Shown here in pieces: positions 14,833-57,100 of a stretch of 64,000 nt of DNA. The position numbers were made by a program, and so were the translations under genes. The stretch comes from Ancylonema sp. Its lineage: Eukaryota. The DNA lies in contig JBFLGF010000015.1 in the NCBI GenBank assembly GCA_050230475.1, positions 1 through 64,000 of the forward strand, given 5' to 3'. How positions within the stretch are numbered: the stretch's first letter is position 1; every line of letters starts with the position of its first letter. The notes beneath the pieces were generated by a model. That model searched no databases. It saw only the letters and a list, made by a program, of their open reading frames with translations, and was not told where the DNA came from.

Positions 14833-15447
14833 CCTGCTGTTCAGCTACACTTCAGCGAAATTCGGCAACTGAGTAAATTGTGTCTCTCAATAGGGGAGAG
14901 ACCGAACAGAATCGTTTCATAATCGATTAAACTATTTTATGCTCCTGCGACGGGACGCTATTATGCGTTGCCGCGAAGAAGTGCATTTTGAGGCTGCACG
15001 TGAATATATTTTTTTCCCTGCGAAAATAAAATTGGGGCACTGGATATTTCTTGAAATATGATACATCAATGTTTTATAAATGCCTGGAACTGGTAGTTGG
15101 AGTCAGCGATTGCTGAATACTTCGTCGACGTAACATCGAGGTTTTCGCAAGATTCGAACGCGTCGTGGCAAAGAAGCATAACATCGGTGTGTACGATTGT
15201 GGTGGTCTCAATGACACGTGTCAATATATGTCAGTGGTACGTGTTCTCCATTGTTGTCGAACTTGCGCATCTGCCCTTCGGCCAGAAATCGAGGCCTGCT
15301 CATCGCTAACTGAGTATTCGAACTCAGTTATCGCGAACTGATTCATAGCATCGCCTCATTTATTTCGTACGCAAAAAAAAAAAAAAATGTGCCAGAAGAA
15401 GCTATATCCTTTTTTGTTAAAACTGCAATCTAATAAAGTTGAATGTT

Positions 15448-25496: not shown

Positions 25497-25593
<97 letters not shown>

Positions 25594-25892
25594 CCCCCCC
25601 CCCCCCCCCCCCTCCACTCTTTCCCTCCACGACGCACTTCCGATCTGGCCTCCCGGGACTTCTCTTTCCTGGACGACGACCAGCTTTGCCCCCCCCCTCC
25701 CCCCGTTTTTTTTAACGACAGTTCTTGATTTAAGCCCGGAGCCAGGATCTGATTCCAGATCCGGTGGCTGAGCTCCGATTTACAGGGTCCGAGCTGGCCT
25801 CGCGAAATTCAGGGTCTGCCCTTTGGGCTCCGAGCTGAATGAGCCCATATTTTTTGGCCTCTGGGCTCATTGGCTCGATCTCTGCTAGAATG
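24910..25892. repeat. Probable DNA-transposon remnant rich in GAGCCC/GGCTCG/GATCCG motifs at both ends
   Basis: Motif clusters at 24925-25160 and 25730-25880; no convincing TSD; the middle is disrupted by a sequencing artefact. Confidence 0.4.
25499..25646 (+). other. Assembly artefact: poly-G/poly-C run plus Illumina TruSeq read-1 adapter
   Basis: About G91 then C23; 25614-25646 matches ACACTCTTTCCCTACACGACGCTCTTCCGATCT at 30/33 positions. Confidence 0.93.
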
Positions 25893-26149: not shown

Positions 26150-29852
<3,703 letters not shown>

Positions 29853-33662: not shown

Positions 33663-36600
33663 TGTAGGAATTATATCGGATAGTCATGCTTGCTAGTGTG
33701 CTAGTCCGGGCTACCGGTTAGTGTAACCGGAACGATTCCTAGGGTGTGCTTGTATTGAGGGGCCGGACTTGTGTCCGGGCACCCGAACATGAAGTTTCGA
33801 TTGTGCCGTTTGTGGCACGTGTGGTCTAGATGGTTTCGGATCTAGACGTTATGTCATGTTAGACTGTCTGGCATGAGTCGTTGCTTAGGTGTCGAGTTGC
33901 GAGAGGCCGAAGGTCAATAGTTCCGACCGTCGGCAATAATTGACGTTGCGATTGTACGAGACATCGAGGTATTATCAACCCGATGTTGTCACTTTTCGAT
34001 AATTAACACGATTATTCTTCCAACACAATACTTTTGATTGATCAGCTCTGAGAGACGTAGTCCCTTGTACGGAAAGAACATCACGCAATATCGCACACCA
34101 ATCACGTAACAATCCTAAAAGGTTATGGGCCCACTAGCGGTCTAGTTAAAGACGCAGTGTTAATAACTACAGGCATTCCACGCGATCTACTGCGGAGAGA
34201 GATTTTGAGATGTGAGATGCGTTACAAAACACGTTGAGAAATCGACTGTCGATAAGCCTTACAACTGTTGCCTAAAATGACGGGAAAATCATACATTCCG
34301 GTCTTCACAGAAGCAAACTATACGGGTTGGGCCTTCAAAGTGAAGTTCGGCCTAGCCGACAAGGAGTTGCATGACGTTGTCATGGATTGGGGCGAATCCC
34401 CGAAGCAAGCGAAACTTGCCGTGTCTCCACCACTCACGCAGGACGAGCTCGATGAGCTGGATGCTACGGACGTCGCTCGTACGGTCACGGCACGCACCCA
34501 ACTCACCGGTCGACAGACTTTGGTTCGAGAAGCCTGGTCGAAGAAGAATATCGTTGCGATGGCCTACATCGTCAAACACCTCCAGACGGGGGAGCTGACG
34601 CATGTGCGGACTTGCGAGACTGCAGCGGAGATGTGGGACGCCCTAAATACTTTCTATGAGATTTAGGGAGCCATCGAGATCACCAACGTTGAAGCAGAGC
34701 TCACGGCGATCATCATGGGAGAGGGGGAGGACCTGAGCGACTACGTGAAGCGACTACAGGAGCCGCATGATCGTGTGGGGCATCTGGGGGAGCCAGTCAA
34801 GCCCGCGAAGCAGACCATCAACTTCCTCAACTCGCTCAACACTCGCTACAGCGCGCGCGTGGAGAGTGTGATGTCGTGGGCAATTTTCGCACCGACACTC
34901 TTCACGATCCCTCAAGCCGTCAAATCATTATCTGCTGGCGATCGACGGGAGGTCTGCAACGACCGCAAGAGAGGGGTGCTGCCGGGAGGGCTTTAGGCTA
35001 GTTTCGTTGGGAAAGGCGGCTACTCGGGCGGTTCTGGAGCTGGTCCAAGTCGACCTGGTGGGAGTGGTGGTCCCGGAAGCCGCGATTTGTCGAGAGTGCA
35101 GTATGGCCACCTGAAGTCGGACTGCCCTACACGTCCGCCAGTGAGGTACCATGGCTGCAACCAGACCGGCCACAAGCTGTCGCAGTGTGGACAGCAACGG
35201 CAAGGGGGAGGTGGAAGCTGGGAGCTGGCGGCTGGTCACGGAAGTGGCAGTCCTAAACTACGATGCAGATACTGTGATAAGCTCGGGCATATATTGGTAG
35301 AATGCATGAAGCGTAAATCTGACATGGCATTGGCTGCACCTGATGCTAATCTTCGTGAACAAGCTCAGGCTAGACTTGTTGCATGTTCAGACACACCTTT
35401 CGATGCATCCAAATCCTTGGCTTGGGCAGCATTCTTGTCTTATGCGAGGATTGCAATGGCAACTGAAACTGATTGCTCGCATCTGTGGCATGATTCAGGC
35501 TCAACCGATCACGTCTTTACCAAAAAATACCACTTCGTCGAGTACGACACCGACGTCCCGATGCAGCACTCTTTCATCCACACGGCTAACGGCACACTTC
35601 ACAAGGTCGAAGGTCATACTTCGTGCACATTCGAGTGAAGAACGACGACTCTTTCTTCGTCGTCCCTCTCATTGCTCTGTACGTCCCTACGTTCGCTGCG
35701 ACCCTGGTGTCCACCGACTGCCTGGTACAAAGAGGTGGGCTGAGCTTTGCCCAGACCCCACAAGGTCCTAAACTGACTAAGGATGGACAAAAATGAGCTG
35801 ATGTTAGTAGGCAGAGGAATGGTCTGTCATTACCGCATGCATCTATCATCATGCGTGGTTCATTTGGTTTGCAAACAAATCTCTCCATAGGCATGCTTTG
35901 GCATGGCAAGCTGGGTCACCCTGGCGTTCCAGCCATGTCACACATGGCCAAACGTGGTGATATACCGAGACTCGGTCAGTGAGAGTTGACAGAAATCAGG
36001 GACTATGAAATCTGCTGTATGGGGACGATGGGACAGAGGGGGCATGCACTGTCTAGCGATGATGTGGCTACTATGCCACGGAGGGGAAGGTTGCATCTAG
36101 ACCTGGTCGATCCTTTTGGAGTCAGGTCAATGCACGGAGGTTTTGAGTACGCACAGAGAGGGATGGAGGTCCATTCTCGACTGTCTACAGTAACTCTTCT
36201 CAAGCACAAGAGCGATGCTCTCAATCAAACGCGCACCACTGTACAAAAACTCGAGGTTAAGTCAGGTTTGCCATTAAAGTCGATCAGGACAGATGGGGGG
36301 GGGGGAATATACCAGCAATGAGTGGAAAGTTTACTGTAAGGAGAAAGGCATCAAGCATGAAGTGATTGCCCCCTACAACCCACAAAAAAACGGCATGTGT
36401 GAAAGACTAAACCGTACATTGATGAAGAAGATGAGGTGCCTACTGATGTGCTCAAAATTGCCTAACTCATACTGGGATGTGGCATTGATGCATGCAAAGT
36501 GAATAAGGAACAGGACCCCCACGAGTTCATTGACCGGGGGGGTCCCTATTGAGAAGTAGACTAGACGGAAAATCAAACTCGACAGGAGTCACACATTCGG

Positions 36601-39600
36601 CTGCCTCGCGCAGTACTTGAAAGTAGGACATAATAAGAACAAATAGGGGGGGAAATATGCTGCCAGGAATGCCTTTGGGGTGTTTATTGGGATGGCAACA
36701 GATCAGGCTGGCTACAATATCCTCGACCCGCTCAGAGCAGGGGTGATGGTGCGGACAGACGTCCCTTTCTTTGAGGAAGTGCCGGGGTACCCGAGATTCA
36801 TGGGGGGGGGTGCTCCCCAGGTCGAGGCCAAAGCAGATGAACACTTCTTCCAGCTGTTCCCCGGCACGGATGATGAGCCTAAGGCTGGAGGGGTGCCACG
36901 AGAAGTTGTAGTGCTAGTAGAGGTGCCAGCTGTAGCGCCAACAGCAGCAGCCCACAACAACCCACGAGCCCAGGCCCCAACACTTCAGTGTCCGCCACCA
37001 CTAGCTGCTGAGGTCCCCATCGATGCGATTGAACTCTCGGACAACCAGTCGGGGATCAACAACGCAGGCGTGGGTGTCGAAGAGGAGGAAGTCCAAGGAG
37101 GAGGTGGAGGGGGTGCCAACCCGGGGGTGAATGCTGGGAGCATAGCTGAGCGTGTGATGGCGAGGAGGAGGGCGAACTTCGCCCACTTTGGGGATGTCCT
37201 TTGATATGATGGGGAGGAGTTCGACGATGAGGTGCTGGAAGCAGCGATTCAGGACGAGGAGTGGGAAGCAACGTGCTTCTTCACAGGCTTTAACGGCCCC
37301 CTCTGACCTTGGATTCTGCATGGTGGCCATGTTTACTGACTCCTCCGACCCTTTGACGCTGAGCGAGGCCATGAAGAGGCCAGACTGGGACTAGTGGTTA
37401 GCTGACATCAAGGAGGAGTTGAAGAGCTTGGGGGAATTCAACACCTTCGAGGTGTGTAAACGTCCGCCAGGTAAAAGGGTTGTCGGGTGTAAATATGTAT
37501 TCAAAATCAAATACACACCCATGGGAGCCCTTGAAATATACAAAGTCAGACTAGTCGCTCAAGGTTTCCTACAACAAGGAGGAGTGGACTATAATGAAAT
37601 ATTCGCACCTGTAGTAGATAGTACCTCTATCTCTCTTCTACTAGCTATTGCGAATCAAGAGGGTTGGGAAATTGAACAAATGGACGTGGTGACAGCATTC
37701 TTGCACGGAAGACTGACTAAGGAGGTTTACATGAAGATTCCACCGTTATGGAGATTGAGGGAGGGGCTAAGGGAAAAGTTTTGCGAATGAGGGGAGCGCT
37801 GTACGGACTGAAGCAGAGTAGCAAGGTCTGGGGTGAGATGTTCACAGCCTTCATGCCTAGTATAGGGTTCAAACGGTGCGTCATGGACACATGCATATAC
37901 ACCAGGGGGACGGGACAGTCACGCATCATAGTGGGTATTCATGTCGATGATCATGTGATAGTTGGTCCAGACCCCATGGTCATTAAAGCATTCAAACACG
38001 AACTGTCTGGGAAGTTTAAGATGAAGGATCTTGGGGCCCTAACCCATATCCTGGGGGTGGAAGTGAATGGGAAAGACCGAGGGGGGTGCTTACGTTGCAT
38101 CCGGGAGGGTTCATGAGACATAATCTGGAACGTTATGGATGGAAAATTGCAACCCTACAAAACTACCCTTACCACTTGGGCTGACATTTCACCAAGAAGA
38201 TGAACCTCTAATGCCCCCTACACGTGAACAAATCACTAAATTCAGAGGGAAAATTGGGTCACTCATTTATGCAATGAAACACACCAGACCGGATATTGCG
38301 CATGCACTCGGGGTACTCGCCAAACACATGGGGAATCCTGGGACTGCTCACATCATGGCCTTACACCGACTGTTCAGATATTTGAAGGGGACACTAAATC
38401 ACGGACTGTGCTACGCGAGGCAGAAGAGGCTAGAGATCAGGGGGTACTGTGATGTGAGTTGGAACAGTTGCAGTATAACCGGGAAGTCGGTCACAGGATG
38501 GGTCACTACTGTTGGAGGGACTGTACTTAGTTGGAAGTCACAAAAGCAGTCTACAGTCGCACAGAGTACAGCAGCAAAAGCTGAGTATATTTTTGCCTGT
38601 AGCGTATCTAAGGAGTGTTGTCATCTGAAGTCGCTCGTGCATGAGCTCAAACTTCATAATGAGATTACAGTTTACGGTGACTCGACTGCCGCCCTCTCCA
38701 TGATCCAGAAGCCAATCCAGCGCTTGAAGGCAAAGCATTTCAACGTGGTGTACCATTGGGTGAGAGAGTGTCACCGAACAGGAAGGCTGAAGTATGTGTA
38801 TCTGGCAGGGGCCAATCAAACCAGCCGATATGTTTACTAAGGCTCTTCCACAAGTCTTGCTTGACAGACACGGAAAGTCTATGGGTTTTGGGAGGGTTCA
38901 CTGAAGTGGGGGTGCACACTAGGTTCTAGGGGTTTCGGCTGCCATGCCATGTTTGGCAGGGGGTGTTTGGCAGGGGGTTTTGTTTTTTTTCTTGCAAAAT
39001 TCGCCTATGGAGGGCTCTCAACGCTCGTCTATCCAGCTAAGTCATCCCCACCCATTTTCTGAAAACACTTATGAAAACATTTTCTGAATAAATGAAAAGT
39101 TGCAGATCTGTTCAGATCTTAGGTTGTCAGTTGTTTCTGAATTCTGGCGTATTTGTTTCCATTTATGTTATGTATGTTGTGTGAAAATTGCAGTTTTTTT
39201 GGTGACGTTTTGAAAAAGTTATGATGTTTTGAGTGTTTCAAGTTATTCGGAGAAAACTGCAGAAAGTTGACTTTTTTGTCATTTTTGTATTGCCCTAACT
39301 TTTGGTGTTAGTTTGTTTGTTCAGGGCTTCGGCCCGAAAAACGGCTTCCGATCGGCTGTTACTTTTTGATAGCCCCCCCTAGCACGCTTGTATGCTAGGG
39401 AAGACCACACTACCTCATGTGTTAGGGGCGGATGCAAAGGCGTCCCTAGCAAGCTAGTTGCAAAATGCACACAAGCAATATGATGGCGAAAGGCCGGATA
39501 GGACAAGATGGCGTGAGCCGGATGGAATGGTTGTATTGTAATAATGACAACTCAAGAAGGAGTGCAAGTACATGAGTTGATAGGAATGTTGTGGAGGCAT

Positions 39601-40468
39601 TCCTATTGGCTAGATATAGGAAAGTCGGCCCTAGCCGACTTTAGGAACAATGAGGGATAACTAAGTCAAGGGTGGCTAAGTACACAACAAAATCTCGCTA
39701 AAGGCACAACTGCCATGACTAAGGACACAACAGAATACTCCCTAGGGGCCAGGCGGCCGCTAGGGACACAAGTCTCACTATCAAGGGGGAAAACTCGCTA
39801 TAGGGAAATATGTTTAAGTAGCGCTCTAGCGCTAAGTGTGGGGACCTCGCTAGGGAGCCCTGGTGACTGTAGCGAGAGTCCTAACATTCATGGGCTTTGC
39901 AATGGTTCTGCCATGACTTAGCCATAGATAGGGTAGTCCCTTGGTGCTGACTCAATGCCAACCTTGGCATGGCATCCGAGGGGGTGTGTAGGAATTACAT
40001 CGGATAGCCATGCTTGCTAGTGTGCTAGTCCGGGCTACCGGTTAGTGTAGCCGGTAGGATTCCTAGGGTGTGCTTGTATTGAGGGGCCGGACTTGTGAGG
40101 GGCCGGACTTGTGTCCGGGCACCCGAACATGACGTTTCGATTGTGCCGTTTGTGGCACGTGTGGTCTATATGGTTTCGGATCTAGACGTTATGTCAAGTC
40201 AGACTGACCGGCATGGGTCGTTGACACGTCTGCTTAGGTGTCGAGTTGTGAGAGGCCGACGGTCAATAGTCCCGACCGTCGGCAATAATTGACGTTGCGA
40301 TTGTACGAGGCATCGAGGTGTTATCGACCCGATGCCGTCACTTTTCGATCATTAACACGATTATTCTTCCAACACAATACTTGTGATTGATCAGCTTTGA
40401 TAGACGTAGTCCCTTGTACGGAAAGAACATCACGCAATCTCGCACACCAATCACGTATCAATCCTAAA
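33663..40468 (+). mobile_element. Copia-2, full-length decayed relative of Copia-1, nested in the RT of Copia-X
   Basis: LTRs 33663-34119 and 39987-40468, PBS GGTTATGGGCCCA at 34121-34133, gag-PR-IN-RT-RH fragments 34277-38900 colinear with Copia-1; TSD degenerate. Confidence 0.95.
39420..39886. mobile_element. 467-bp solo-LTR-like insertion in the 3' UTR of Copia-2
   Basis: Absent at the homologous site of Copia-1; ends TGTTAGG...CCTAACA; flanks CTCATG / TTCATG. Confidence 0.75.
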
Positions 40469-42259
40469 AGCTGCCAGGTCAGGTCTTGTGCCAGAAGCCA
40501 GATATAACAAGGTGCCCATTGCTGACTTGTATCTTATACCCTCAATTCCAGCAAATTTAAAAGCAGATTCGCAGCTCGCAAAAAAGTTCACACCCAGCTT
40601 AAGAGGAGTAGCAACAGAACTGCAGTCTTCCATCCCGAAATTTGTGAGCATGTGTTTGGCATATTTTTCTTGAACCAGAATCACATTGCCATCAGGATGC
40701 CATCGTATTTCAAGCCTTAGCAGGAACTTTGCCTCTCCGAGATCCTTCACATTATACCGCTTTCCCAGCCCTCCCTTCACCCCCAAAATTAGTTTCCAGC
40801 CTAATGCACAAGAGAAAAACGTCATCCACATAAAGTGCCAAGTATAGCGCCTCAGGCCTCTCTCCCATAATATTTAGGCCAAAATATGAAGCAAGACGAT
40901 GAAATTTCATGCCTTTCACCACGTCGTCGATATGTCGATTCCACCCCCTTGGTGCTTGTTTGAGACCATATAAACACCTGAGCAGCAGCAACTCCAAATT
41001 TTTTTCACGAGGCCCACTCGTGCCATTAGGGGCCTCCGTGTACACTTCTTCTTCCAGGGGTGCATAGAGAAAAGTTGTGGTTTCATCCATCTGGTGCATG
41101 TGTAGCCCCTTGGAAGCTGCGACGAATGCTCTCAAATTGAACACTCGGAGAGATGAAGTGCCAGATAGGATCGATAGGGTAAAGGGTCGTTGATGACGCA
41201 ATCAATTGATGTATGACGTCATAACGTAGTCCATCGACATAAATTGGTGAATGTCGATATCGATGACTTTGTAAGTGTTTATTGGGCATCTGCCTAACTA
41301 AGGAGTTTGGCACGCTTGAATCGCGGCAGTGATCGTTAACGATCACCGAAACGTCGGCAGAAACGGTAACTTGACTCGTTACTCTCTCGCTGCGGGCAAG
41401 CAGACAATGGTATCGACACTCTGAAGATTCTAAAGGAGTGTGAAGCAACACAATAACTAAGTAAGAACACTATAGCTATCGGTCAACGATCAGCTCTTTA
41501 TGTGTAAGTCTTAATTACTTGTAATCTGCAGCAAAGGACTTTGAGTTTGCAAACTGATCGTAGCTCTGACTTGCGTCGTGTAAATCAGCACACAGAGTAA
41601 TTCGCGAAAGCGAAGTAAATAGACTAAAGCACGATGAGCGACAGCTCGGATGTGCAAGCAGCAATGACAATAAATCACACTATGCAAGCAAGCAGATTGC
41701 AAGGCAAAGCACAGAAGACAAAGATACAGATTACATGAGAGGCAAGATAGGATGCAAGTCTCTTCGGCGTTAGATTTAGCGAAAGCTGAATTCTGAGTTT
41801 GGAATACAAAGGTTTTATTCAAACTCTACAGACGACGCTAGACGCGTGTCGATCTACAATTCAATTTCACAAAATATGTCTCGCGCGCAAATGTCTTATC
41901 TACAATATCTATCGTCGGATATTCATCGACGGCTATTGATTGCTAACTAGTACAAAGGTGCCACGTCGGATCGACGGATAACAAATGCTAAGCAAATATA
42001 ATTCAAATATTTAGCGGGGGCGCAGGCTGACAACTAGAGCTCGGGAGCGGGACCGGCGAGCGGGGCGGAAGTTGTAGTGCGGCGGAACTCTAGATTTGGC
42101 GCGGCGCAAACGTGATTTAATATCGGGAGAGATTTAGTAGATATTAGGGGTAAAATAGCTAACCGTAGTACATCGACATGAATTGGTGAATGTCGATATC
42201 GATGAATTTTTAAGTGTTAACTAGGCATCTGCCCTAACTCCCCCCCCGAGACTGGTAAG

Positions 42260-44089
42260 TCATGCGTCCACGTCTGGGTCGATGAGGCAGATGTAGGAAG
42301 CAGGATCGCAGGTGCATAGTAGAGCGTGCAGGCGAGTAGAAAACAAGTTGGAGTTGTCAGGGTAACGTTGACAACTTGTGCTTGAGTTTGTAAAATCGGT
42401 GTAAAGTGGATTGGTCCCTACTGTCAATTGAACTGGACTAGTAGTTGAGGATGTATCCGAATCATGGGTTGATGCTCGCTGATGTAGTGATTGCTTGTGA
42501 AACACCAGCCGTGCCGTTGTTGGCGAAAGTGGTAATTTGTAAGAGAAAAACCCATTAACTCCATCAATTAACAAGAAGTGATCTTCGTTGTCACGTGATG
42601 TTGGTTTTGAGCAGTTGGTTGAAGTTCGGGGTGTCTCCGAGTCATAACGGGGCATTCGTAGTCTTGGTAGTAAGGGTAACAAAAACATGTCGTCCATGTA
42701 TTCCGTCATACGAATGTCATTCCTTGGTTGAGGATCCATGAGATCAATAGATGTAAGGTCGTTGTTGTGCTCCGTTGTAGGAGGCAATAAACAGTTGAAA
42801 ATGTCGGTGTTGTTGGGAGGATTTTCCACACTTTCAGAGTGTGTTTCTGAATGTGTATCCATGACACATGTAGTTGATGGGGAATGTGTGGAGTCCGAAT
42901 CACTTAAGGGTCGTGGGAATGGTGGTGTGCGAGGGTTATCTCCCCCCCCGCTGCTGCCATTTTCCTCAAGATTCCTCGTGTTGATGGTAGTGAGAAGACC
43001 GCCGTACCATTTAGTGATATTATGATCCAACATGCGTCCCAATAATTGACAATTGCGCATATCATTGTAAGAAGGATCCCCTGTAGGAGTTATGGTGATG
43101 TCATCGATGTCGATACCCATAAAACGCGCACTTTCCCGTGGGTTTGGTGTGCTCCATTCTCTTTTTGATGCATGGAATAACATACCGTTTCCATACACGT
43201 AGCGGCCCAGTTCTGGACGCCAAATGAGTGCGTAGTCGGCATTATCATAGTAAGGGGTAATGGGTGGCATCATGGTGCGTTTTGTGCCACGAATGTTGAT
43301 GCCCGGTAAATTGATGCGATCGATGACACCATTTTGAGGGCGGCGTCTTGGATCAAGGAGTGATGCGATTGTGCATCGTGAGGGGTTGTTGGGCACCGCA
43401 TTAAACAATCGATTGGAAACGAATGTATTTTGCAAGATGATGGTGTCCCTCTAGCTATTGCTCCCCAAGTGTGCAGCGTTGATAAGCGTTGGTTGGCCGG
43501 AAAACGAGTTGGCCACACAAACGAGTTATTTTTCCCACATGGGAAAATCGTGTGAGGTAGCATGATTGTAAAACATGTAAGTTGGACGCCATGGTTGTTG
43601 TGTCGAGACGTAGCAAACAATTTTTGCCATATTGAAGAACGTTGCCACCCGTGGTTCATGAACGGAGACCACAGGTGTGATGTCGCGTACCATTTGAATG
43701 TTCCAGTTGCCACTAACAAAATCGATGGCTCCCCATGTGTTGATGATCTTGACGATGTCCATCGTGCAAGTTTCATCCAATCGATGAGGAAGTGTCGCAT
43801 CAAAACCATTTATGGCACTTTCCGGGAGTAAGTCGGGGAATAAAAGGTGTGAATCCTACATTTGTCGTCGTAGAGATATTTGTGCCTCTGGATCTTGTTC
43901 TTGCACGTGAACTTTCTTAATGCGTTCACCGCCATAGAGTAACATCCGGAGTCCAGAAAGGTCGACGCCCGCAAAAGGTAGCCATACATGTAGGCCTTGG
44001 TTGTTAGCCCTTGTTGGAAACCGATTGGCCGGAGTAAAACAGTTGAGTCTGTCGAGCAAAATTCCAGGCCAGTAAGGTTCGAAAGACAC
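42260..44089 (-). pseudogene. C5-cytosine DNA methyltransferase-like domain (catalytic residues substituted) with a low-complexity tail, E1
   Basis: Motif-like blocks in order: I WLPFAGVDLSGL, IV GAIDFVSGNWNIQ, VI PTYMFYNH, VIII NAAHLGSNS*RDTIILQN, IX PNPRESARFMG, X RNCQLLGRMLD; several in-frame stops. Confidence 0.75.
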
Positions 44090-44563
44090 TGCTCCGGAGT
44101 GTTGCTTGAGGGGTTTTCGGAGGAGTTTTTTGCTCTCTTGGTGTAGTTCGTCTTGTCAATTCTCCATTTCCTCTGCGTCATCTTCGTCATACCGACTTAT
44201 GAACGGATGTTGTCGGCAGTTGAATGGTTGACGTAGGTAATCTAAATCCCTGGTTCTCCAAGGTGGAGGTGGTGTCGTGGGTAAGTTGATCGTGTGTGGT
44301 CCGAGAAAGTACTGTTGTTGATGTAATCGAGCATACTTACGAAGAGTCGACCTCACGATCGGTGTTGTGTAGTACTCACGTGGCGGTACCGTTGCAGGCA
44401 CCACAGGTGGTTGTAAATATATATTTGCTTGATGTGTGTACGCGCTAGGTTGGGAGAAGTCAGCCATGTACATTTGGGCGGTGATCGCCGCGTCGCCACC
44501 GACTCGGATGGGAATGTTGCCAATGCAATCTCCCTCTTGCTCCCACTCTGCGCGGTAAAATAT

Positions 44564-45109
44564 TTATTTGTTCCATGTATCGACGCATCCCCCGATAGTT
44601 GCGATGAGTGTGTTCCCGAGAAGCACATCATAGTCCATGGATGGGGAGAGGTGTAATTGCGTCCATACGGTGGTGGGGTTAGGAGTGTTTGCACCAATGA
44701 TAATTGGATTTTTTTCCTTAGTTGTTCCGAGTGTAAATTTGGTATCCCCTGATGCCATTTTGTAAGGAGTTCCCGGATTGAGGTCCGAATCTTTGATGCC
44801 CAATTGTCTCCGATATGGGACGCCCACCATGGTGTTTGTGGCTCCCGAATCCAAAATGAGCTTCAGTGGTATCGTTTGCTTGATTTGTAAGTTGCCATCT
44901 TTGTTGTCCACCGTGGTAACTTGATATTCTGTCTCATATGTCTTTGGTGGTGGTGGGATCGCCAGCGAACACACTGTTTCCGCATAATGTTGTGTTGTTG
45001 ATAGTTGGGGTTGTGGGTCCTCCAATTTGAGAATGAGATCCTGTACCATTTGTAATGACTTCGTGTTGGTCAATGTAAGTCGTTGCTCGATGCCAGATAA
45101 GATCAACAC
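44564..45109 (-). pseudogene. Retropepsin-type aspartic protease of E1
   Basis: LILDSGATNTMVG...YDVLLG motifs. Confidence 0.88.
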
Positions 45110-46989
45110 ACCGTTTGTTTTTGATTTTTGTTATTTTTTAGTTTTGAATCCAGGCAATATGACAAGTTCACAGATTACAGATTTCACAGATTTGAGAAGA
45201 AATTATATTTTGCAACCTGGCAATTCTACACGAAACAATTCTTCACAAAATTGACAAAAATTTGTAAAGCGACACGCAGATCGAAACAAAGTTCACTTAT
45301 AAATGCGCACGAACAACTTTTATACCTCTAGCTGCAGTAGCGCGCAGCGCTGAAAGCACACAAGATTGATGGTAGGGGTTTTTTTTTTTTGGCAATTTCA
45401 GCTATTCACCTTGAATTCAAACGTCGACGCATAATTTATAGTCGCCTTGTAAGTGTAGAATCTTCGGTAAGTTGATGGCCAGAGGCCCTTTCGCTGAATC
45501 TGAGAAGTTTGGCACGCTTGAATCGCGGCAGTGATCGTTAACGATCACCGAAACGTCGGCAGAAATGGTAACTTGACTCGTTACTTTCTCGCTGCGGGCA
45601 AGCAGACAATGCTAACGACACTCTCAATATTATAAAAGAGTGTGAAGCAATACAATAACTAAGTAAGAACACTATAGCTATCGGTCAACGATCAGCTATT
45701 TATGTGTAAGTCTTAATTACTTGTAATCTGCAGCGAAGTAAACATACCGAAGCACGATGAGCGAGAGCTCGGATGTGCAAGCAGCAATGACAATAAATCA
45801 CACTATGCAAGCAAGCAGATTGCAAGGCAAAGCACAGGAGACAAAGATACAGATTACACGAGAGGCAAGATGGGATGCAAGTCTCTTCAGCGTTAGATTT
45901 AGCGAAAGCCGAATTCTGAGTTTGGAATACAAAGGTTTTATTCAAACTCTACAGACGACGCTAGATGCGTGTCGATCTACAATTCAATCTCACAAAATAT
46001 GTCTCGCGCGCAAATGCCTTATCTACAATATCTATCGTCGGATATTCATCGACGGCTAACAATTATGACAAGTCATCACAAGTTGATTGCTGACTAGTAC
46101 AAAAGTGCCACGTCGGATCGACGGTTAATAAATGCTAAGCAAATATAATTCAAATATTGAGCGGGGGCGCAGGCTGACAATTGGAGCTCGGGAGCGGGGC
46201 CGGCGAGCGGGGCGGAAGTTTGTAATGCGGCGGAACTCTTGATTTGGCGTGGTGCACACGTGATTTGTCAAGCCTGTATGAATCGTCAGCTATAAACCCC
46301 TCTGCTTTTATGATAGTATTAAAATAGCCGCACCGCTATGTTTTTCCGCCTTGTCACGACTCCGCCCCCTCATTTCATTCCGAGCTTTGTCGGTGACCGG
46401 CGCCCTTTTATTAAAGTTTCGAATAGTCAACCGTCAACCTTTGACTAGCTCCCCTTTGTATTTGAATTGATTAGACTACGTGTCAGACTTGTCATCAATA
46501 ACAATCGTGACCGTAGCTCTTTAGATCAACCGCTCAAAATCAATTAGAGATGTTTGCAACCAATTATAGCGTGTGCGCCGAGTTGATTTATATATTTCTT
46601 GCCACGCGTATCCCGGCGAGCGCGCGAGTAGAATATTCAAGTTTGACAATAAAGACCTTGTACAACTTTCAAATCTCAGCTTTCGCTGAATTTGACGCCG
46701 AATAAATTTTCCTTGCACACCATTGTTTTCCTCGACACTCTGAATTCTTTGCCTTGCGCAATCTGCTATCTTTTGCTTTCGCGACATCGTGTGTATCGAG
46801 CGTTCGCTCTTTTGTGATTGCTTTGCATCAAGCTATCGCTTTGCAAATTTTGAATTACCCTCGTTACCGAAGTTATCGATTGTCTGACCTGCTGCGCAGT
46901 CAGAAATCACCTGTGTGAATTACTATTATTACTATTATTGAATTACTATTATTATTACTATTGTTTTGTTTCTTCCAACGCTTACATAC

Positions 46990-48617
46990 CGAAATCGACA
47001 AATTTTTACCAAAAGGCTTATACACGAAGTACTTCAACGTACAGACAATCGGATCGACAAAATGACAGACCTACAGATCGACAAAATACTAATGGCGAAA
47101 GACCACCTCCAACATGTTACAACTGCAACCAAGTCGGCCACTACAAGAAATATTGCAATTTACCAATGAAATCTGCACCACCTACCGGACCTACGCAACC
47201 TTACCGATCTTCAAATCAACAAGCTAGCGGTCAACAACCTCAAGGAAACCACAAAGGAGATTCTTATGGACAACAACGAATGAATCAAGTTCCCAAACCT
47301 CGATAGTTCGGACCTGATTCCTACACGAAGGGAGCAACATGCACTAATTGTGGGACGATGAACCACAAAGCGAAACAATGTCAACGACCACGCAACGGCC
47401 AACACTTAACGTTACCCGTCCCTCCAATTTCATTGGATCTATCCGCAGGACCAGAAGTGCAACGCATCACGTGGAAGGACCAGCAACAACCCGATCCTAG
47501 CCTCATCTTCATGGAGAAAGAACCTGAAAAAGAAGCCGATTCAACGAAGGGGTCCCTTGACGACGACATTGACGAGTTAACCTATGTGCAAATTCTTAAC
47601 GAGGAGATTAAGATCCTTAAAAAAGGATGGCAGGACGCGGTTAAGGTAAACATACCAAAACAAAATACACTTACCCCAAGAAGATCACCAAGAGTTGCTC
47701 AATTTGAACTTCGTCGACAAACTTCAAGCTTACCAGATTCCTCCAGATCACTACCTAGACCAACGTTAACATCACCACCACCTGAATGTGACACTCATGC
47801 ATCAGAGGAAGCTACAATTACCAATCACCGTGTCACACGCAATGATGTATACCCACCAGAACATGAGGACACAGGACGTTTCGATTTAGAAAGACCAGAC
47901 TATGGAAGAAGACGTGGATATAGCGTTAAAATGCCAGAAACATGGATCCCTGAATTCTCTGATAACATCACACCAGGCACGGTTAACCTGAATGAACCAA
48001 CATTCACCGACCCGCCACCACCATTACCCCTTCCTCAGGCACATGCAGTTGCCAACCAACTCAACACGATGCAAATCGAGCTCCAAAAACTTGTCATCGA
48101 ACAAAGCAAGGCAATCACCTTGGCACACGACCTCGTCCGCATACTAGAGAACCCTTCCCCTCAACTGTCGGCGATCCTCAAGGCCACGAAGGAAACCCCG
48201 ATGGAGAACACCTACAAGCCTCCACACGCAAGAAAAAAAGGTGAGCTTACCATGGATACTTATCAAATCACCACGATTGATAATAACACTAGAATTTGTC
48301 ACATCAATGGAAAAATCCCAATGAAACCGGTCATTGATTCGGGTGCACAAAATACTATGATTGGTATTACTTACCGAAAGACCCTCGACATTACCGATGA
48401 CGATTTACGAACTGGTTCACAATACACAACGGCATCCGGTGACATTCGAACGAGCATGGGCAGCACAAAGGAAAAATTCCCCATTATCCTAGGAGCTGGC
48501 ACACCAAATCCGACGACGGTGTGGACAGAGTTACACCTTTCCCCATCCAAAGATTTTGATTTACTTCTGGGCACTGTTTTCATCGCCACGCTCGGAGGAT
48601 GCAGTGACACCCGATAA
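46990..48617 (+). pseudogene. Gag (two CCHC zinc knuckles) plus retropepsin of E2
   Basis: CYNCNQVGHYKKYC, CTNCGTMNHKAKQC, VIDSGAQNTMIG...FDLLLG. Confidence 0.88.
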
Positions 48618-49194
48618 AATAAGTTATTTTGCCATGCTGATTGGGCTCACGGCGGACATTGCCTCACAAGCGTTCCCATTACCGTCCAAGGACCTCCCAA
48701 GGTAATACCACAAATACTCATGGCAGACTTCGAGGTTAAAAATCGCACTACAAATGACATGCACCGAAACAAAGTATACGACAACAACATTCGACAACAA
48801 CCATTACTACTAGTGTGTTGTCCCTGGGCCCACACCTCAGTTACCCAGCATAAGACAATTAGTGATAAAATTTGCAACATTACACATATTTACACATCAA
48901 GACAAAGAATACAAGTACTCTGCATGGATGGTTACACCGTGGAATTGCACAGTCTACGATTTTCTTCAAAAAATACTTTGACGCTGCATCTCCATATATT
49001 GCACGCAAGCATGACCACCACGCAAAACAAATGGCGTTCGACAATCTTATGCTCAGTCAAGAAAGTGAACGAATTCTAAAAAAGATGATGCTTACCGCGA
49101 AAACATAATCACCATGGAAACCATTTTGGCCTGGCATTTCATATGACGACTACAAATGCATTACCCCACCGGTTCGGTTGATTCAACTACAATA

Positions 49195-50150
49195 TGGACT
49201 TCATGTATGGCCACCATTCGCAGGTATCGACCTCTCCGGACTCACCATGTTGCTCAAAGGCGGATTCCGTATCTCCACACTCTATCCGTATTCCTAATCA
49301 ATTACCTAACTCTGCATTACATGGCTTTGATACACGAATACCAAACGCATTGGTGAACACGATGACTACCGACATCTCCAACATGATCATGACCCATGGA
49401 CCAATCGACTTCATCTGCGGCAAGTGGCACAGTGAGGTCATCTGTAATGAGACACCAATTACCACAATCAAAGATCCTCGAGTGGCAGCCCTGTTCACAC
49501 TACTGACACTCGTTCAACAATTTTAGAAGATGCAACCTTTCATTCCGACATACATGTTTTACAATCATTATCGACCAGCAGATTACCCTCTGTGGTCCAA
49601 AGAACTATTGCATATGACATCACAATTTCTTGGAAAAATGATAATAGTCAACGCTTTACAGCTTCGTTCCCACTCTTACCGACAAACTCATATCTGGAAA
49701 AATACCTTTCCAAATGGACATCTTCGAGCATCTATTCCCAACGACAGATGGATTTCCAAAATCGAGCGGTTACTCAACCTAGGACATCAGGAACAAGGAA
49801 AAGGTGCCAACACGTATAAGTGCGAAAGCAACTATTACCGGTCCCTTGATGAAAGACAATTCATGCCATCAATAACCCCTTACCAAGAAAATCCTGACTA
49901 TGTTTTAACATGGAGACAACATCTACAATAGTACACGTACGGCGAAGGGATGCTGAAGGACAACACCAACAACCACTGGGTGTCACCACCTGCTGGCGAG
50001 CGTGAAAGATTTTTACATTACAACTTGGACGATATATCCATACCTGCACACCCGGATACTAATTACCTGAATAAACGTAACTGCCAACTCCTTGGACTAA
50101 CAATGGACAATAAAATTTGTGCTTGGTATGGAGGCTTACTTGGTGCATTT
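49195..50150 (+). pseudogene. C5-cytosine DNA methyltransferase-like domain (catalytic residues substituted), E2
   Basis: GLHVWPPFAGIDLSGL, GPIDFICGKWHSE, PTYMFYNH, NALQLRSHSYRQTHIWKN, PPAGERERFL, RNCQLLGLTMD; colinear with the E1 domain. Confidence 0.75.
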
Positions 50151-51523
50151 CACAGCTTCCACAACTTCTTCATCCACGAATGTCACTATCATCCACGACG
50201 ATCATAACAACAAGTTACCTTTGACATGAGAATCTGAATCCAAAATATTTGTCCTCCCATTTACATCTGCTATAATTTCTACACACCCTGATGCTGTGAT
50301 GACTACACATCCAACAATATCGACAACTTGTCATTTTTTAGCTTCTGAGAACAACCCTTGTGCTACATCATTACATGCTACAATTTATGATTGTGATCCT
50401 GATCACTTTACCCTTTTCTATTGATTACCCAGATGTGAACGCATAGCTCTTCAATCTGGGGGGGGGGAATAACGATATTCTAGCCTCCTATCTACACCTA
50501 CACTACATCGACAAGACCCCTTTCTGTCGATATTTTGAGTGCGATTACCCCTTCATCGACTAATTCCATCATCGATGACCCATTTACCCTACCGATCTCA
50601 TCTGGCACGCCAGCTGTCATGCCTGTACGAATCGTCAGATAGAAACCCCTCTGTTTTTATCAGAATATTTAAATAGCCGCACCGCTATGTTTTTCCGCCT
50701 TGTCACAACTCCGCCCACGCTCATTTCATTTCGAGCTTCGTCGGTGACCGGCGCCCTTTTATTAAAGTTTCGAGTAGTCAACCTTTGACTAGCTCCCCTT
50801 TGTATTTTAATTGATTAGACTACGTGTCAGACTTGTCATCAATAGCAATCGTGACCGTAGCTCTTTAGATCAACAGCTCAGAATCAATTAGAGATGTCTG
50901 CAACCAATTATAGCGTGCGCGCCGAGTTGATTTAGACATTTCTTGCCACGCGTATCTCAGCGAGCGCGCGAGTAGAATATTCGAGTTTGACAATAAAGAC
51001 CTTGTACAACTTCAAATCTCAGCTTTCGCTGAATTTGACGCTGAATTTTTCCTTGCACACCATTGCTTTCCTCGACACTCTGGATTCTTTGCCTTGCGCA
51101 TTCTGTTATCTTTTGCTTTCGCAACATCGTGTATATCGAGCGTTCGCTCGTTTGTTATTACTTTGCATCAAGCTGTCGCTTTGCAATTTGTGAATTACCC
51201 TCGTTACCGAAGTTATCGATTGTATAACCTGCTGCGTAGTCAGAAATCACCTGTTTGAATTACCGAGCGTTCGCTCATCCGTGCAATCCATTCGCACATC
51301 TCTTTTGCTACTATGCTTGGTGATCAAGAATCGACGCATCTGTTGCTGTAATCTTGTGGCGCTCTCGTTACTTTTAAGCTGTTAGGTAAGAGCAGCGTGT
51401 GATAGCTTGCTAGCGGTGAGTAGTACATCGAATAAAGCTCGAAAATTGCCTCGTTTGTGTGATTGTTTACAATCATTGCCGCGATTCAAGCGAGCACCGT
51501 ACTCTCAGTTACGATATTCCAGC

Positions 51524-52305
51524 TAAATCGATTTGTCACTTAATACGGTAGCGCACAAGTTTAATGCTTTACAATACAAGACAAAATAATTGTACGATAA
51601 AGCAACAACGATTCGGTATGATTGTGAAATGTTAATTATGAAAGTGTTCTCGTCGGGCTAATGTACCCGACGAGCCGACAACGGTACAATGATAAGCCGA
51701 CAACCTAGGCAGGCCCCTTTCACTGAGCTGAAAGCCTATCCCCCCTTCGTTTGTTGAGACAATTGAGGCTCACCAGCTGCTGGCCCAAGCTGGGCACGTG
51801 CAGGGAATTCAGCAGCACCTCCTCCACCGACGTGCCTTTCTTCAGCGCCACCTTCACATGGCCTACACCCAAGATTGGATGTGCGCGGCCATCTGCTGTT
51901 TTGACATGCCTCTTGTCAGCTGGCACTGTGGTGGAATATCGCATGAAGTCTTGACGGCTCGGGAAAACATGTTCGGTCGCTGCAAAATCTAATATCAAAA
52001 GCTGCTCCTGAACTTCTGCCCGTGATCCTTTCTTCTCAGCTAGGGCACTCCGAGAGAAGACAGCCATCCCGAAATTGCCTCTCCCCACGTCTAGCTCCTC
52101 AAAATCTAGGGCACTGTCAGCTAAATGCGCGGAAGCATAGTTAGCTCGCTTGACCTGCCCCTCTGCATCCTGCCGCTTCAGATCGCATTGCTCGACTCTG
52201 TGGCCTAGCTCCTGGCAGCAGGCGCACGTCAGCTCACGCTGCTGCTGCCCTTGCTGCCGATTTCTGCCATACTGCTGGCCTCCGTTGCTTCCTCCACCGA
52301 ATTGC

Positions 52306-52339
<34 letters not shown>

Positions 52340-54109
52340 GCTTCCTCCATACAGCTGCTCATTTTGCTGCTGGGATCGTCGGCAATCTCGCACCAGATGT
52401 CCGGGGTCACCGTAGTTGTGGCAGCGCTTCTGCGGCTGGCCGCCTTGCTGCTGGCCTCCGCTTTCTCCAGTGGGGTAATTCGACTTGTAGTATCCGAATT
52501 CCTGGCAGCCGTGGCATCGCACGCTGCTGATTTCCCCTCTACCGCCATTTTGGGGCTTGCTCCCATGTGCAGCTCCTCCGGATCCGCCGTAATGCGCCTG
52601 CGGACCACCGAGAGGCTCGCCACGCTTCCGCGCGTTGACGATGAGCTTGGTGTCCTTACGCTGCAGAGCCGAGGTGATGCGGGGGATCGTATAAAGATTC
52701 GGCGAGGACTCCGCCCAGCTTTGGACGACCTCGACCATCGTGTTGTATCGCGTGCTCAGGCTGTTGATCAAATTTGTCGCCTGGTCTGCTTCGCTGACTG
52801 TCTTCCCAAGGTGCGCAAGCTCTCCATGGATGACCTGCAGGCGTTTGACAAACTCTTGTAAGTCTTCTGCCTCTCGGCCTCTCCCATTACCGTAGCACTC
52901 AGTTTAGCCAGGGCATTAGCTACTTGGACTTCGTAAAAAGATGCAAGGTTATTCCACGTTTCAAATGCGTAATCACAATCCCTAACATGGACGTGCTCTG
53001 AAGGACCTAAAAACCTAACAATGTAGGCCTGCGCCTTTAAATCCTGCGCATCCCAAGCATCAACAAGCAAATTTATAGCATCGACATTCTGTTGGTGTAT
53101 ATTAGCAGCAGCTTCGAGTTGCTGCATCATCAGGCAATGAATCGACTGCTGCCTGTGTCAGCGGCTCGATAACAGCCGGGCGAGGTGTATTCTCGTCCTC
53201 CTCTTGAAGTCGACGACATATCGATGCAGCTCTTTTTCGATCGGGCCGAACCTGACCTTAATGGCCCATCCCTGATATGCTGCCCCGGTGAACTGGGGAA
53301 TATTGTTCTTATCCGCCATCTGCACCAGGGTTATAATACACAAAAATTCCAAAACAAAGATGCAGCAGCTAGCAGCTCTAGCAAAACTTTGGCGGCAATT
53401 TGCAGCACGCAGCTCACAGCTCACAACACAAAAAACAATAGCAGAACGTAATTCAAAAATTACGAGCCTAGCAATTCCATATCTTATTGCCCTAACAATT
53501 AGGCACAATTTACCGTGATTTCCAGAGCAGCTTTGCCTGCCAGTGAAAACGTGGAAATCTATAGGATCCGACCGCTCAGATGTCCTAGACAATCTGTGGG
53601 CCCATAATCTAAAACGATTTGTCACTTAACACGGTAGCGCACAAGTTCAATGCTTTACAATACAAGACAAAATAACTGTACGATAAAGCACCAGCGATTC
53701 GGTATGATTGTGAAATGTTAATTATGAACGCGTTCTCGTCGGGCTAGCCAATGTACCCGACGAGCCGACAACGGTACAATGATTACTGGTCGCTTTTCTA
53801 GCCGACGGTCGGAACTATTTGACCGCCGCGCACTCTAACCGTGCCAGCATAATTGTCCACGGCAACTTGCCGGACTAAACCGTCACATCACATCTCCGCC
53901 AATAGTGACACGACACCGCCCTAGCATCGCTTTGACAACCAACAACGACTACTAGTTGGACCACGCCGTACAAATGCGGACGTGACCAAGTGCGGACGGA
54001 TGCCCGGGTGTAGCATACCCGGCTCCGTGTCCTAAAAAGACTCTAAGGCAATAATTTGGACAAGGCAAACAAGTTATTAAATGTGCCTATCCGAACTCAA
54101 GTCCTATCA
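51524..54109 (-). mobile_element. Copia-3, internally deleted (gag-PR only), nested in B2 of E2
   Basis: 5' LTR 54109-53610, PBS GATTATGGGCCCA (53609-53597), gag with knuckles and PR-like LDFAATEH, partial 3' LTR about 51693-51524; TSD CCAGC (51519-51523 / 54110-54114). Confidence 0.9.
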
Positions 54110-57100
54110 CCAGCCTCCTATTTGCACATACACTACATCGACCAGACCCCTTTCTGTCGATATTTTGAGTGCGATTACCCCTTCATCGACTGATTCCATC
54201 ATCGATCATCCATTTACCCTACCGATCTCATCTGGCACGGCAAAATATAATTGAAATATTGAGCGGCGGCGCAGGCTGACAACTGGAGCTCGGGAGTTGG
54301 CGAGCGAGCGGGGCGGAAGTTGTAGTGCGGCGGAACTCTTGATTTGGCGCGGCGCATAGGTGAGGTATTATAGGGAGAGATTTAGTAGATATTAGGGGTA
54401 AAATAGCTAACGATCTCAGACGTCGTGACAAAGAAGGTGTGGTCATAATCTGCCCTTTCCACTTGGCTAAACCCCTTAGCCAAAATTATTGCCTTAAAAT
54501 TTTATACAGAACCATCAGCATTGATTTTGATCCTGAACACCCATTTTGACTTTACAACTTTCTTCCCCTTCGGCCTTGATACTAGTCGATAGACCTCGTT
54601 TTCTCGGAGACTGCCCATTTCAAGTGCCATTGCAGCTTGCCACTGAGCTCTTGTTGGACTATTGAGAGCTTCTTGCACAGTCGTCGGTGTTCTGATCTCA
54701 GCCTCCAAGTTCGCAACAAAAGCAGCAGCCAATGTGTTTGGATTCACACCTCTATTTTCCCTTGCTGATCGACGCACATGCGGATAGTTATCGTATGGAT
54801 CATCGAAAATTTTTTCGGGATAGACATCGGCCAGACCAAGAGGGTTGAGAGGAGTAGCGTCATCTGGATACCATTCTGGACCGTCCTCGAGATGATCTTG
54901 GTCCTCATCGTCCCCACTAGAGTTACTCACAAGTTTTGGAAGATCTGCATTCTGAAGAGGAGGAGAGCTCGGAAGCTCTGGTAATGGATTTCCGACGGCA
55001 TCAAGGAGCTCTTCCTCGAGAGAATTTGGATCGCCATAGGCAGGTTGTCCACTTCGAGAACTGCCCCCTCCCATTCGAACACTATCCTCTCCTGCTCTTT
55101 GATCAACTGCATCCATATCTGGCCATGATTTTTTGACACTTCAACTGGCTCATGTACTCTTGCTTTCTTGCCAACTTTTTGTCCTTTCCACCAACTTGAC
55201 TTTACAAATTCATCGAAATCGGCATGACCAGCACCAACGTTGTGAACGTTGTTCGTTGCAGGATCTCAGACTCGGTAGCAAGGACTGTCAACGTTCCATC
55301 CAACTAGCACACCAAGCGAGGCTAGTGCATCTATTTTACCTGCACGATCTTGCTTCTCCAATCTCACATATAGTTTGCAGCCGAAATAGCGAAGATGATC
55401 AACTTTTGGAATTCCCCCGACCACATCTCCTCTGGAGTTTTTGGAAGGCCACTAAATTGGCATCGATCTTTTAGGTACGAAGCTAAGGAGATTGCCTCGG
55501 CCCACAGACCAGGAGGAAGTTGCGTGTGGAGAAGTATAGAGCGAGCCCTTCTTGCAATGTACGATTCATGCAATCTGTGATTGCAATCCTTTGAGATTTT
55601 TGAGAGGTTTTCGAGATTGCCGTTCCCAAATTGCGATCCATTGCTTCAGACGAGGAGCCGCATCATCTTTGTTTCGAAGTGTTTCCACCCAAGATTTTCG
55701 GTTGTATTCATCGACCAGCACCATGTTGTACACTCCACCCCCTATCGATGCTCGATTGAACGGCCCTACTAAATCGACTGACACTCTGCCAAGGCATACT
55801 TGCTCTCCTACACCAGCTTCTCGACGAGGATGAGGTTTGTCGTGTGCCTTCCCCAGCTTGCACCCTTCACGATTCTGCGCACTTCCTAACATTTATCCTT
55901 CAAGTCCTCTTACAAGATGCTCTCATGCCATATTTTTTAGCACTCTCTCAATCACATGCCCAAGTCTTGTGTGCACGAGATTGATTTCAATAGCACCTAC
56001 AACAACTTCCCCTTAAATGAGTCGTTGGTGTCGAACCGGAGTGGACCGGCTTGTCGATGTTTCTTGCAAAGTGCAAACCTGTTGACCAGATTTGTTGTAG
56101 ACTGGAATGATGCCACGTGCTTTTCCACCGCAAGTACATGACCTTGTTTCTCTGGCTTTTTTACCGCTAAACATATTTATCCGCATTCTAGGGATGTAAA
56201 GACATTTCTTGAGCGTTACACCTCCACATTCTCCCTCTATATTCAGCTCAATTGTCCCCCACTGCTTCACACACACACTTCCGACCATTTGGTGCATAAT
56301 GACCTCATGAGGGATGTCTTCGAGGGTTTTGAAATGACTTTTCTGCCCACAGTATGATGGCTGGAACCGTCGTCGAAGAGAAAACTATTTTCTTCAACAT
56401 CCTGATCTGCAAATTTTCCTTCACAAATCTCAACGACGAGAGCTTCTCCATGACCGCAGCTCTCATCTTCATCGATTTCACCAACAAAAGTAGTCTTTCG
56501 CCCTGTTCGCACCCCTTTTCTCTGCATTCGTGGAGCGTCGTTTTTATTGTCGAAACAGGTGAATTATACATGACCGCTGGCTCCACAATATTTGCATTCT
56601 TCATTTTTCTTAGAGCAATCTCTGCTGTAGTGACCTGTCTCTCCACAAGTGTAGCAAGAATGTCCTCCATTTGATCCACCGCTTCCACCTCTGCCTTCAC
56701 GACCACCTCTGCCTCCACGGTTATCTCCTGCATATCCCCTGCATGTTCTCTTGCCTCCACGATTGTCGATGCCACCACCTCTGCATTGACTTAACTTTTT
56801 TTGTCGCGCTGACCACTTGGCATAGTTTGCCTCAACTACTAGTGCCTCAGCGTATTTGACATATTTTTCTTTCTTGTCGTCTAGCTCATCCATTCCCATC
56901 TGCCCCCAGATCCATCTGATTTCAGGTTCTTCTTTTTGCCCGTAATACAACTTCTTCAGCATACCGTACTTTGTTCTTGACATGCCAGCAAACAATGCCA
57001 TCACCCCATCTTTTGCACTGACTCGAAATTTATGATGTACACACTCTCTGATAATCGACGAAAAATCATTTTTGATGTTTCTGAATGTCATCTCTTCATC

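Follow-up and report, generated by a model that had tools for sequence, protein, structure and literature searches.

The stretch analysed here, a 64,000-nucleotide window of Ancylonema sp. DNA (contig JBFLGF010000015.1 of assembly GCA_050230475.1, positions 1 to 64,000 of the forward strand), contains two repeat-bounded elements, E1 on the minus strand and E2 on the plus strand, which lie head to head at 46266 and each carry, behind a retropepsin, a domain resembling a C5-cytosine DNA methyltransferase with replaced catalytic residues. Both elements have the layout A-ORF-polypurine tract-B-A-B (ORF, open reading frame), start with TGTCA and end with CTGGCA, and their A repeats share 72% identity across 693 bases. 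E2 spans 46266–54237, has a Copia element nested in its last repeat, and is itself inserted in the first repeat of E1. E1 spans 54430–41159, splits a Copia reverse transcriptase (RT) gene, and is flanked by a near-match of 6 bases. An earlier note, made from the sequence, had described the domain behind the retropepsin in both elements; we find every motif at the site it gave, but the elements extend far past its limits (Table 1).

Because RT, RNase H and integrase are absent, the label 'retroelement' rests, at sequence level, on the zinc knuckle, the retropepsin, the polypurine tract and the repeats. Specifically, 15 long relatives gave no match to RT, RNase H or integrase anywhere in the window, and Pfam found none of the three in the main element ORFs. 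No tyrosine recombinase was found in the ORFs scanned, which covered some of the frames, and a helper may supply one; no Gag was seen in E1. The database protein P0003 has the same tail behind the domain end in another copy, so the missing RT directly behind the domain is not specific to E1.

Contigs from four sequencing runs (at most three samples, from two studies) cover the internal regions of E1 and E2 evenly. In run X1, the summed depth over the element interiors is 10,000–17,000, compared with ~110–210 for single contigs, with up to ~30 contigs per position. These data show many related copies of both elements, depth not being equal to copy number. Among the copies covered, only this E1 copy has the stop at 44158.

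Table 1. Features of E1 and E2, with positions in the window
Feature	Position	Strand	Remarks
E1 DNMT3-related pseudo-methyltransferase domain (putative)	42980..44000	-	motifs I-X in normal order; in-frame stops 43858, 43528, 43453
E2 DNMT3-related pseudo-methyltransferase domain (putative)	49195..50156	+	motif I in different frame; stops 49524, 49929
E1 retropepsin, DSG intact	44500..44920	-	PF13975/PF13650 E 2e-4 to 6e-4, under curated cut-off; 55% identity to E2 protease
E2 retropepsin, DSG intact	48260..48680	+	PF13650 over cut-off; PF13975 E 9e-6
E2 Gag remnant, two CCHC zinc knuckles, no capsid domain seen	47100..47390	+	PF00098 E 2e-4 and 0.008, both weak
E1 Ser/Thr/Pro-rich tail, in frame behind domain, without RT	42260..42980	-	
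E1 repeat A1, main part	45500..46266	-	95% identity to A2, 742 aligned bases
E1-type 5' end of A1, starts TGTCACG	54243..54430	-	on far side of E2; repeats ~123 bases of 46141-46263
E1 polypurine tract (42247-42240) and shortened repeat B1	42164..42247	-	
E1 repeats A2 (42163-41298) and B2 (41299-41159, CTGGCA end)	41159..42163	-	
E2 repeat A1, starts TGTCA, shorter than A2	46266..46923	+	93.5% identity to A2, 647 aligned bases
E2 polypurine tract (50458-50467) and repeat B1, CTGGCA end	50458..50607	+	7-base spacer, then A2
E2 repeat A2 and first bases of B2	50615..51523	+	other copies' contigs join 51520 to 50482, giving A2 then B
E2 rest of repeat B2, beyond nested Copia	54110..54237	+	94% identity to B1, 131 bases

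Several features of the repeats bear on how the elements came to be arranged. The nested Copia element (51524–54109) has an internal deletion and Gag remnants, and is bounded by a 5-base duplication, CCAGC, at 51519–51523 and 54110–54114. Both flanks of E2 carry ~123 bases of 90% identity (46141–46263 and 54243–54363), much longer than an integrase target duplication, which might point to an atypical mode of integration or to repeats having recombined. At 50458–50620, the polypurine tract precedes B, and B, with its CA end, is followed by a 7-base spacer and then by A, with its TG start. The element looks like a circular intermediate opened within the long terminal repeat (LTR) at integrase-like TG/CA ends.

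In E1, motifs I–X of the methyltransferase-like domain follow one another in order, as the note had proposed for both elements, while in E2 motif I sits in another frame. The F-x-G of motif I, part of the loop that binds S-adenosylmethionine (SAM), is kept in both, as had been claimed. Specifically, motif I of E1 reads FAGVD, with its F at 43975 on the minus strand; motif IV reads GNWNIQ from 43711, with Ile in the Cys position (43699–43697); motif VI reads MFYNH from 43576, with the Tyr codon at 43570–43568; and motif VIII reads RDT from 43450, immediately behind an in-frame stop. The corresponding segments of E2 are FAGID, with its F at 49217 on the plus strand, GKWHSE from 49419, with Ser in the Cys position, MFYNH from 49554 and YRQT from 49677. 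The register was fixed by alignment with active relatives, which places WNIQ/WHSE opposite WECQ/WPCQ, YN opposite EN, and YRQT opposite HRxR. Behind motif I of E2, a frameshift lies near 49286–49292 and ~23 codons are gone, the acidic residue of motif II among them. Over 288 residues, the two domains share 39% identity (E 3e-72, stops read as X), far above chance. With stops in both and a frameshift in E2, the copies at hand are pseudogenes.

Neither domain matches a Pfam family at E up to 0.1, and a single-sequence PDB search with the domains gave no match. An exhaustive phmmer search with E1 returned 70 proteins at E ≤0.001, mostly retroelement DNMTs; among the families listed by Pfam for 33 of the 70, DNA_methylase appears in 18 and RT/RNase H or integrase in 21. 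A profile of 34 rows, six of them E1, E2 and relatives with the same kind of loss (the dead group below) and 28 others, matches DNMT3B best (E 1.3e-20), followed by DNMT3A (5.7e-20), DRM (2e-12) and M.HhaI (3e-9). A structure model built from the same alignment has a predicted local distance difference test (pLDDT) score of 85.7 and superimposes on DNMT3B with a Z score of 24.7 and a root-mean-square deviation of 3.1 over 280 aligned residues. Profile and model both lead to DNMT3B and bear out the C5-methyltransferase fold that the note expected. Homology, predicted fold and motif order assign the E1 and E2 domains to the DNMT3 branch of C5-cytosine DNA methyltransferases (PF00145); the model supports a DNMT3-type fold for the family, and we infer it for the dead members.

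Further searches added little. In word-index protein searches, P0003, which covers the tail and the domain end, was the only find in a set of 734 candidates, and P0013 the only one in a set of 3,034; a search of proteins of 30–55 residues gave no match, but such short lengths make it of little use. None of 96 pattern matches in metagenome scans was confirmed, and one DNA match, L001, was due to chance.

We tallied residues over 68 database rows, with P0005 (repetitive, unrelated) and P0003 (tail) excluded from the counts and the tree. The Cys of motif IV, whose catalytic role is documented in the accessible part of PMC2965745, is kept in 56 of the 63 rows with a residue there. The corresponding figures are 51 of 54 rows for the motif VI Glu and 48 of 53 for the second motif VIII Arg. 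At these three sites, E1 has Ile, Tyr and Thr and E2 has Ser, Tyr and Thr; the identical replacements reported earlier hold for Glu to Tyr and Arg to Thr, whereas the Cys position differs between the copies. In the rest of the dead group, the Cys position holds Thr in P0004 and P0013 and Gln in P0015, the Glu position holds Tyr in P0004 and Trp in P0015, and motif VIII reads R-x-T in P0004 and P0006, as in E1 and E2.

Fifteen alignment columns are invariant in 45 fully active relatives. Both copies depart from seven of these, namely three catalytic-loop columns, the motif VI Glu, the motif VIII His and second Arg, and the target-recognition Thr. Another seven are unchanged (Gly, Ala, Pro and Leu residues and the first motif VIII Arg), and at the remaining one E1 alone differs. 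Base flipping and catalysis are known to depend on the altered residues. The SxAFR segment is replaced too. As read from the alignment, the loss is wider than the note had stated, the catalytic loop and the target-recognition Thr being replaced as well. No substitute Cys common to both copies was found near the catalytic loop, position 122 being Cys in E2 only. Motifs I, IX and X are largely retained; motif I is the best-kept segment (58% E1/E2 identity over 43 codons), and E1 retains the motif II acidic residue and the motif X Arg, the latter being Leu in E2. The hydrophobic helix behind motif IV, which we take to be the DNMT3L contact, is also kept: where DNMT3B has RLFF, E1 reads ATFF and E2 reads AALF.

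The replacements are not confined to broken copies. P0004 and P0006, 83% and 78% identical to E2, read open where E2 has stops and carry the dead-group replacements where they reach, and the distant database fragments P0013 and P0015 show the loss where they reach. The note had named a family consensus that retains the catalytic motifs as evidence against its view; P0004 and P0006, free of the stops, carry the same replacements, as far as these two copies can speak for the family. In an unrooted tree from a quick search (70 rows, with P0011 and P0014 swapped for the longer cluster members P0079 and P0089), the six dead rows (E1, E2, P0004, P0006, P0013 and P0015) form one side of a branch with a Shimodaira–Hasegawa-like approximate likelihood ratio test (SH-aLRT) value of 100. 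In addition, 36 of 269 columns carry a residue common to E1 and E2 that is present in at most 5% of active rows.

Comparison of the E1 and E2 domains points to selection at the protein level. Identity at codon positions 1, 2 and 3 is 0.49, 0.68 and 0.37. From this one pair, the synonymous divergence (dS) is 2.2, the nonsynonymous divergence (dN) 0.62 and dN/dS 0.26–0.28; the raw ratio of proportions, pN/pS, is 0.60 (95% range 0.51–0.71). The two copies are identical at 51 of 102 family-conserved columns, compared with 53 of 167 variable columns (p 0.003). Since dS is ~2 while dN/dS is 0.26–0.28, selection appears to have kept acting after the loss; the note had named a dN/dS near 1 as evidence against its view, and the value is ~0.27. 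Together with the grouping of the dead rows, the shared Tyr and Thr, and the presence of the replacements in P0004 and P0006, these results support inactivation of the domain before the E1/E2 split, as the note had proposed, followed by purifying selection. Loss of catalytic residues combined with purifying selection also speaks for its idea of a selected pseudo-enzyme, which we consider quite probable.

In our reading, E1 and E2 are damaged members of two RT-less families, each present in many copies, whose DNMT3-related domain was dead before they split and was then conserved; we tentatively propose that it serves as a non-catalytic partner of an active DNMT3-type enzyme. Because the scaffold, most SAM-side motifs and the helix behind motif IV are kept while the base-engaging residues are lost, a DNMT3L-like role is favoured, and the pattern as aligned is easier to reconcile with a protein partner than with a protein that binds DNA. 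Intact family members would be transcribed from repeat A and would yield a protease–pseudomethylase protein, plus Gag at least in the E2 family, with RT and integrase borrowed from a helper element. The protease would release the domain from the polyprotein, and the freed domain could pair, through the helix behind motif IV, with an active DNMT3-type enzyme of the helper or the host, as DNMT3L does with DNMT3A. Such pairing, our leading explanation though slightly less likely than not, would change the methylation of new copies, and stimulation or block of the partner are both possible. A narrower version, in which the domain is a transposon-made DNMT3L that binds a host or helper de novo methyltransferase and redirects or blocks methylation of new copies, is possible but on the unlikely side.

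Several observations weigh against this proposal. Of the 34 aligned rows behind the confident model, 28 are not members of the dead group, and a model from the six dead rows alone, which are too few, has a pLDDT of 35.4. Among the sequencing runs listed for the sequence there is no RNA run. The tree has no outgroup, P0013 forms a long branch and P0015 is a short fragment, and all three catalytic sites are covered only by E1, E2 and P0004. dS is near saturation, which makes dN/dS rough, and the domain value is about twice that of the protease (0.28 vs 0.12). P0012, P0027, P0035 and P0068, scattered outside the dead group, also lack the Cys, so ordinary decay, by this count, occurs in the family too. 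Neither a helper element nor an active partner was found in the window. Finally, CpG decay in the E1 and E2 repeats, where transitions affect 17 of 219 CpG sites and 38 of 493 other C/G sites, is the same as in Copia controls (104 of 781 and 382 of 2,798); there is no signal in either set, and the comparison is uninformative.

The domain could instead be an inert folded relic, itself idle and conserved since a misfolded C-terminus would spoil the polyprotein. In favour of such a relic are the mostly structural nature of the kept residues, the weaker constraint relative to the protease, and P0013, which has also lost motif I (it reads WANAD) and the motif II acid. However, the domain is the last recognisable one in the frame, and a stop or deletion behind the protease would cheaply drop it; both families nonetheless kept ~1 kb of domain across dS ~2, and the 36 group-specific residues that they share suggest a new constraint. 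We regard an idle relic as unlikely.

The note had also suggested a DNA-binding decoy, a role that is weakened because base-flipping and target-recognition residues are lost along with the catalytic ones. In its fuller form, the domain would bind the complementary DNA or RNA of the element without base flipping and shield this nucleic acid from methylases or defences of the host. The target-recognition half equals the catalytic half in E1/E2 conservation (48% vs 43% identity; dN/dS 0.28 vs 0.26), the first Arg of motif VIII is kept, and CpG observed/expected is higher in the element coding parts (0.87–0.95) than in four Copia stretches (0.55–0.77). Against these stand the replaced Thr, SxAFR segment, catalytic loop and second Arg, the near-neutral net charge (in E1, 36 K+R vs 33 D+E), and CpG transitions no lower than in the controls, and we consider a shield improbable. 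More Copia copies lie at 8006–14500, 33663–40470 and 61927–63990, the first two being 81–86% identical. No CpG hypermutation was seen between Copia copies or LTRs, which is unexpected if host repeats are CpG-methylated.

No more probable, in our judgement, is a neo-enzyme that has retained SAM binding and, by a direct transfer that needs no cysteine, methylates something else (protein, RNA or an amino group). The well-kept motif I, the motif II acid and motif X Arg of E1, and the shared, conserved new residues Tyr-Asn-His and Thr would suit such an enzyme, but motif I is gone in P0013, E2 has lost the motif X Arg, and the residue in the Cys position varies (Ile, Ser, Thr or Gln). A TSPPY-like motif IV, the mark of amino-methyltransferases according to the accessible part of 10.1101/2021.02.12.428880, is absent as well, its place being taken by GNWNI in E1 and GKWHS in E2. 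Least probable by far, and already largely refuted, is independent post-insertion decay of an active domain in each copy: E1 and E2 are indeed pseudogenes, given their stops and the frameshift, and their differences from other copies are known for the best 40 of 1,924, but the same Tyr and Thr occur at dS ~2 and in the open-frame P0004 and P0006, the terminal repeats of each copy, are only 5–7% diverged, too little for so many changes, which decay after insertion cannot explain, and none of the best-supported 40 of 1,924 differences falls in a catalytic codon, which is a weak point.

Elsewhere in the window, an intron-rich gene for a plant-like cytosolic Hsp70 occupies 26150–29850. It reads SGD within the 'RLIGDAAKNQ' stretch, which is usually invariant, and a long G/C run lies upstream at 25499–25612; either may be error or decay. 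Together with the protease–DNMT relatives described below, this gene suggests that the host belongs to the streptophyte green algae. A tandem repeat with a 10-base unit, similar to a telomere motif (TTAACCCTGA), lies at 2810–3290, and a tandem array of a 25-base unit at 16414–16791. Among the database relatives, P0100, P0102 and P0038 are very long polyproteins. P0100 (4,799 amino acids) has OTU protease, RT, PHD, PCIF1-like, DNA_methylase and RNase H matches, that is, two methyltransferase-related domains in one element resembling a long interspersed nuclear element (LINE).

Dead DNMT3 paralogs are already known as host genes. Our literature search, in which coverage of subscription papers was limited, found no conserved dead transposon DNMT; the accessible parts of PMC12344493 and PMC6338049 contain no such form, and that of PMC5890265 describes transposon DNMTs with conserved key residues. 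The same text calls it unclear why retrotransposons carry DNA methyltransferases, and the ideas it offers mostly assume catalysis. A domain kept after catalysis was lost would imply that methyl transfer is not the sole selected feature, and a natural pair of active and dead forms is available for direct test. If our proposal is true, the DNMT3 family has given rise to a further independent pseudo-enzyme beside DNMT3L and DRM3, on the transposon side. On the narrower version above, a mobile element would be turning a pseudo-enzyme derived from the silencing apparatus against that apparatus, or using it in concert with it. Profile surveys would overlook the domain because Pfam does not detect it.

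The nearest relatives with a comparable order are seven proteins in which a protease is followed by an intact DNMT, with no RT in the same frame (P0079, P0086, P0049, P0052, P0053, P0061 and P0041), among them CAI7911866.1 of Closterium sp. NIES-53 (P0053). P0079 and P0086 give the top scores of 15 long relatives against both the protease and the domain of the window. As in E1 and E2, the frame stops at or somewhat past the domain; unlike E1 and E2, these proteins keep the Cys, the Glu and both Arg, and they are known as proteins only, so that an RT may lie in another frame. Going by their sequences, they are possibly an undescribed group of elements. TR-GAG-type plant LTR elements also have Gag and protease without RT or integrase, like E1/E2, but have ordinary LTRs and no methyltransferase.

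KnitGypsy-Dnmt3 of Klebsormidium nitens, as described in the accessible text of PMC5890265, is likewise a retroelement with a DNMT3-related domain of unpermuted motifs, an A-ORF-B-A-B layout of DIRS-like repeats on a Gypsy-type body, and purifying selection on the domain (Ka/Ks <0.2, compared with ~0.27 in E1/E2). Its key residues are conserved, whereas the catalytic residues are lost in E1 and E2, and its DNMT shares one ORF with RT and RNase H, whereas E1 and E2 lack RT, RNase H and integrase. KnitGypsy-Dnmt3 gave no activity in yeast, a result that its authors call inconclusive (PMC5890265). Marchantia DN4MT1, considered as a precedent for a C5-derived N4 methylase, was dropped, since the accessible part of the preprint groups it with prokaryotic N4 enzymes (10.1101/2021.02.12.428880). 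DNMT3L and plant DRM3, according to the accessible part of PMC2965745, are dead DNMT3-family paralogs that lack the Pro-Cys of motif IV, are selectively kept and act alongside active ones. They are host genes with an N-terminal reader domain (PHD/ADD or UBA) and a demonstrated active partner (PMC2965745), whereas the E1/E2 domain is element-borne, lies behind a retropepsin and has no reader domain.

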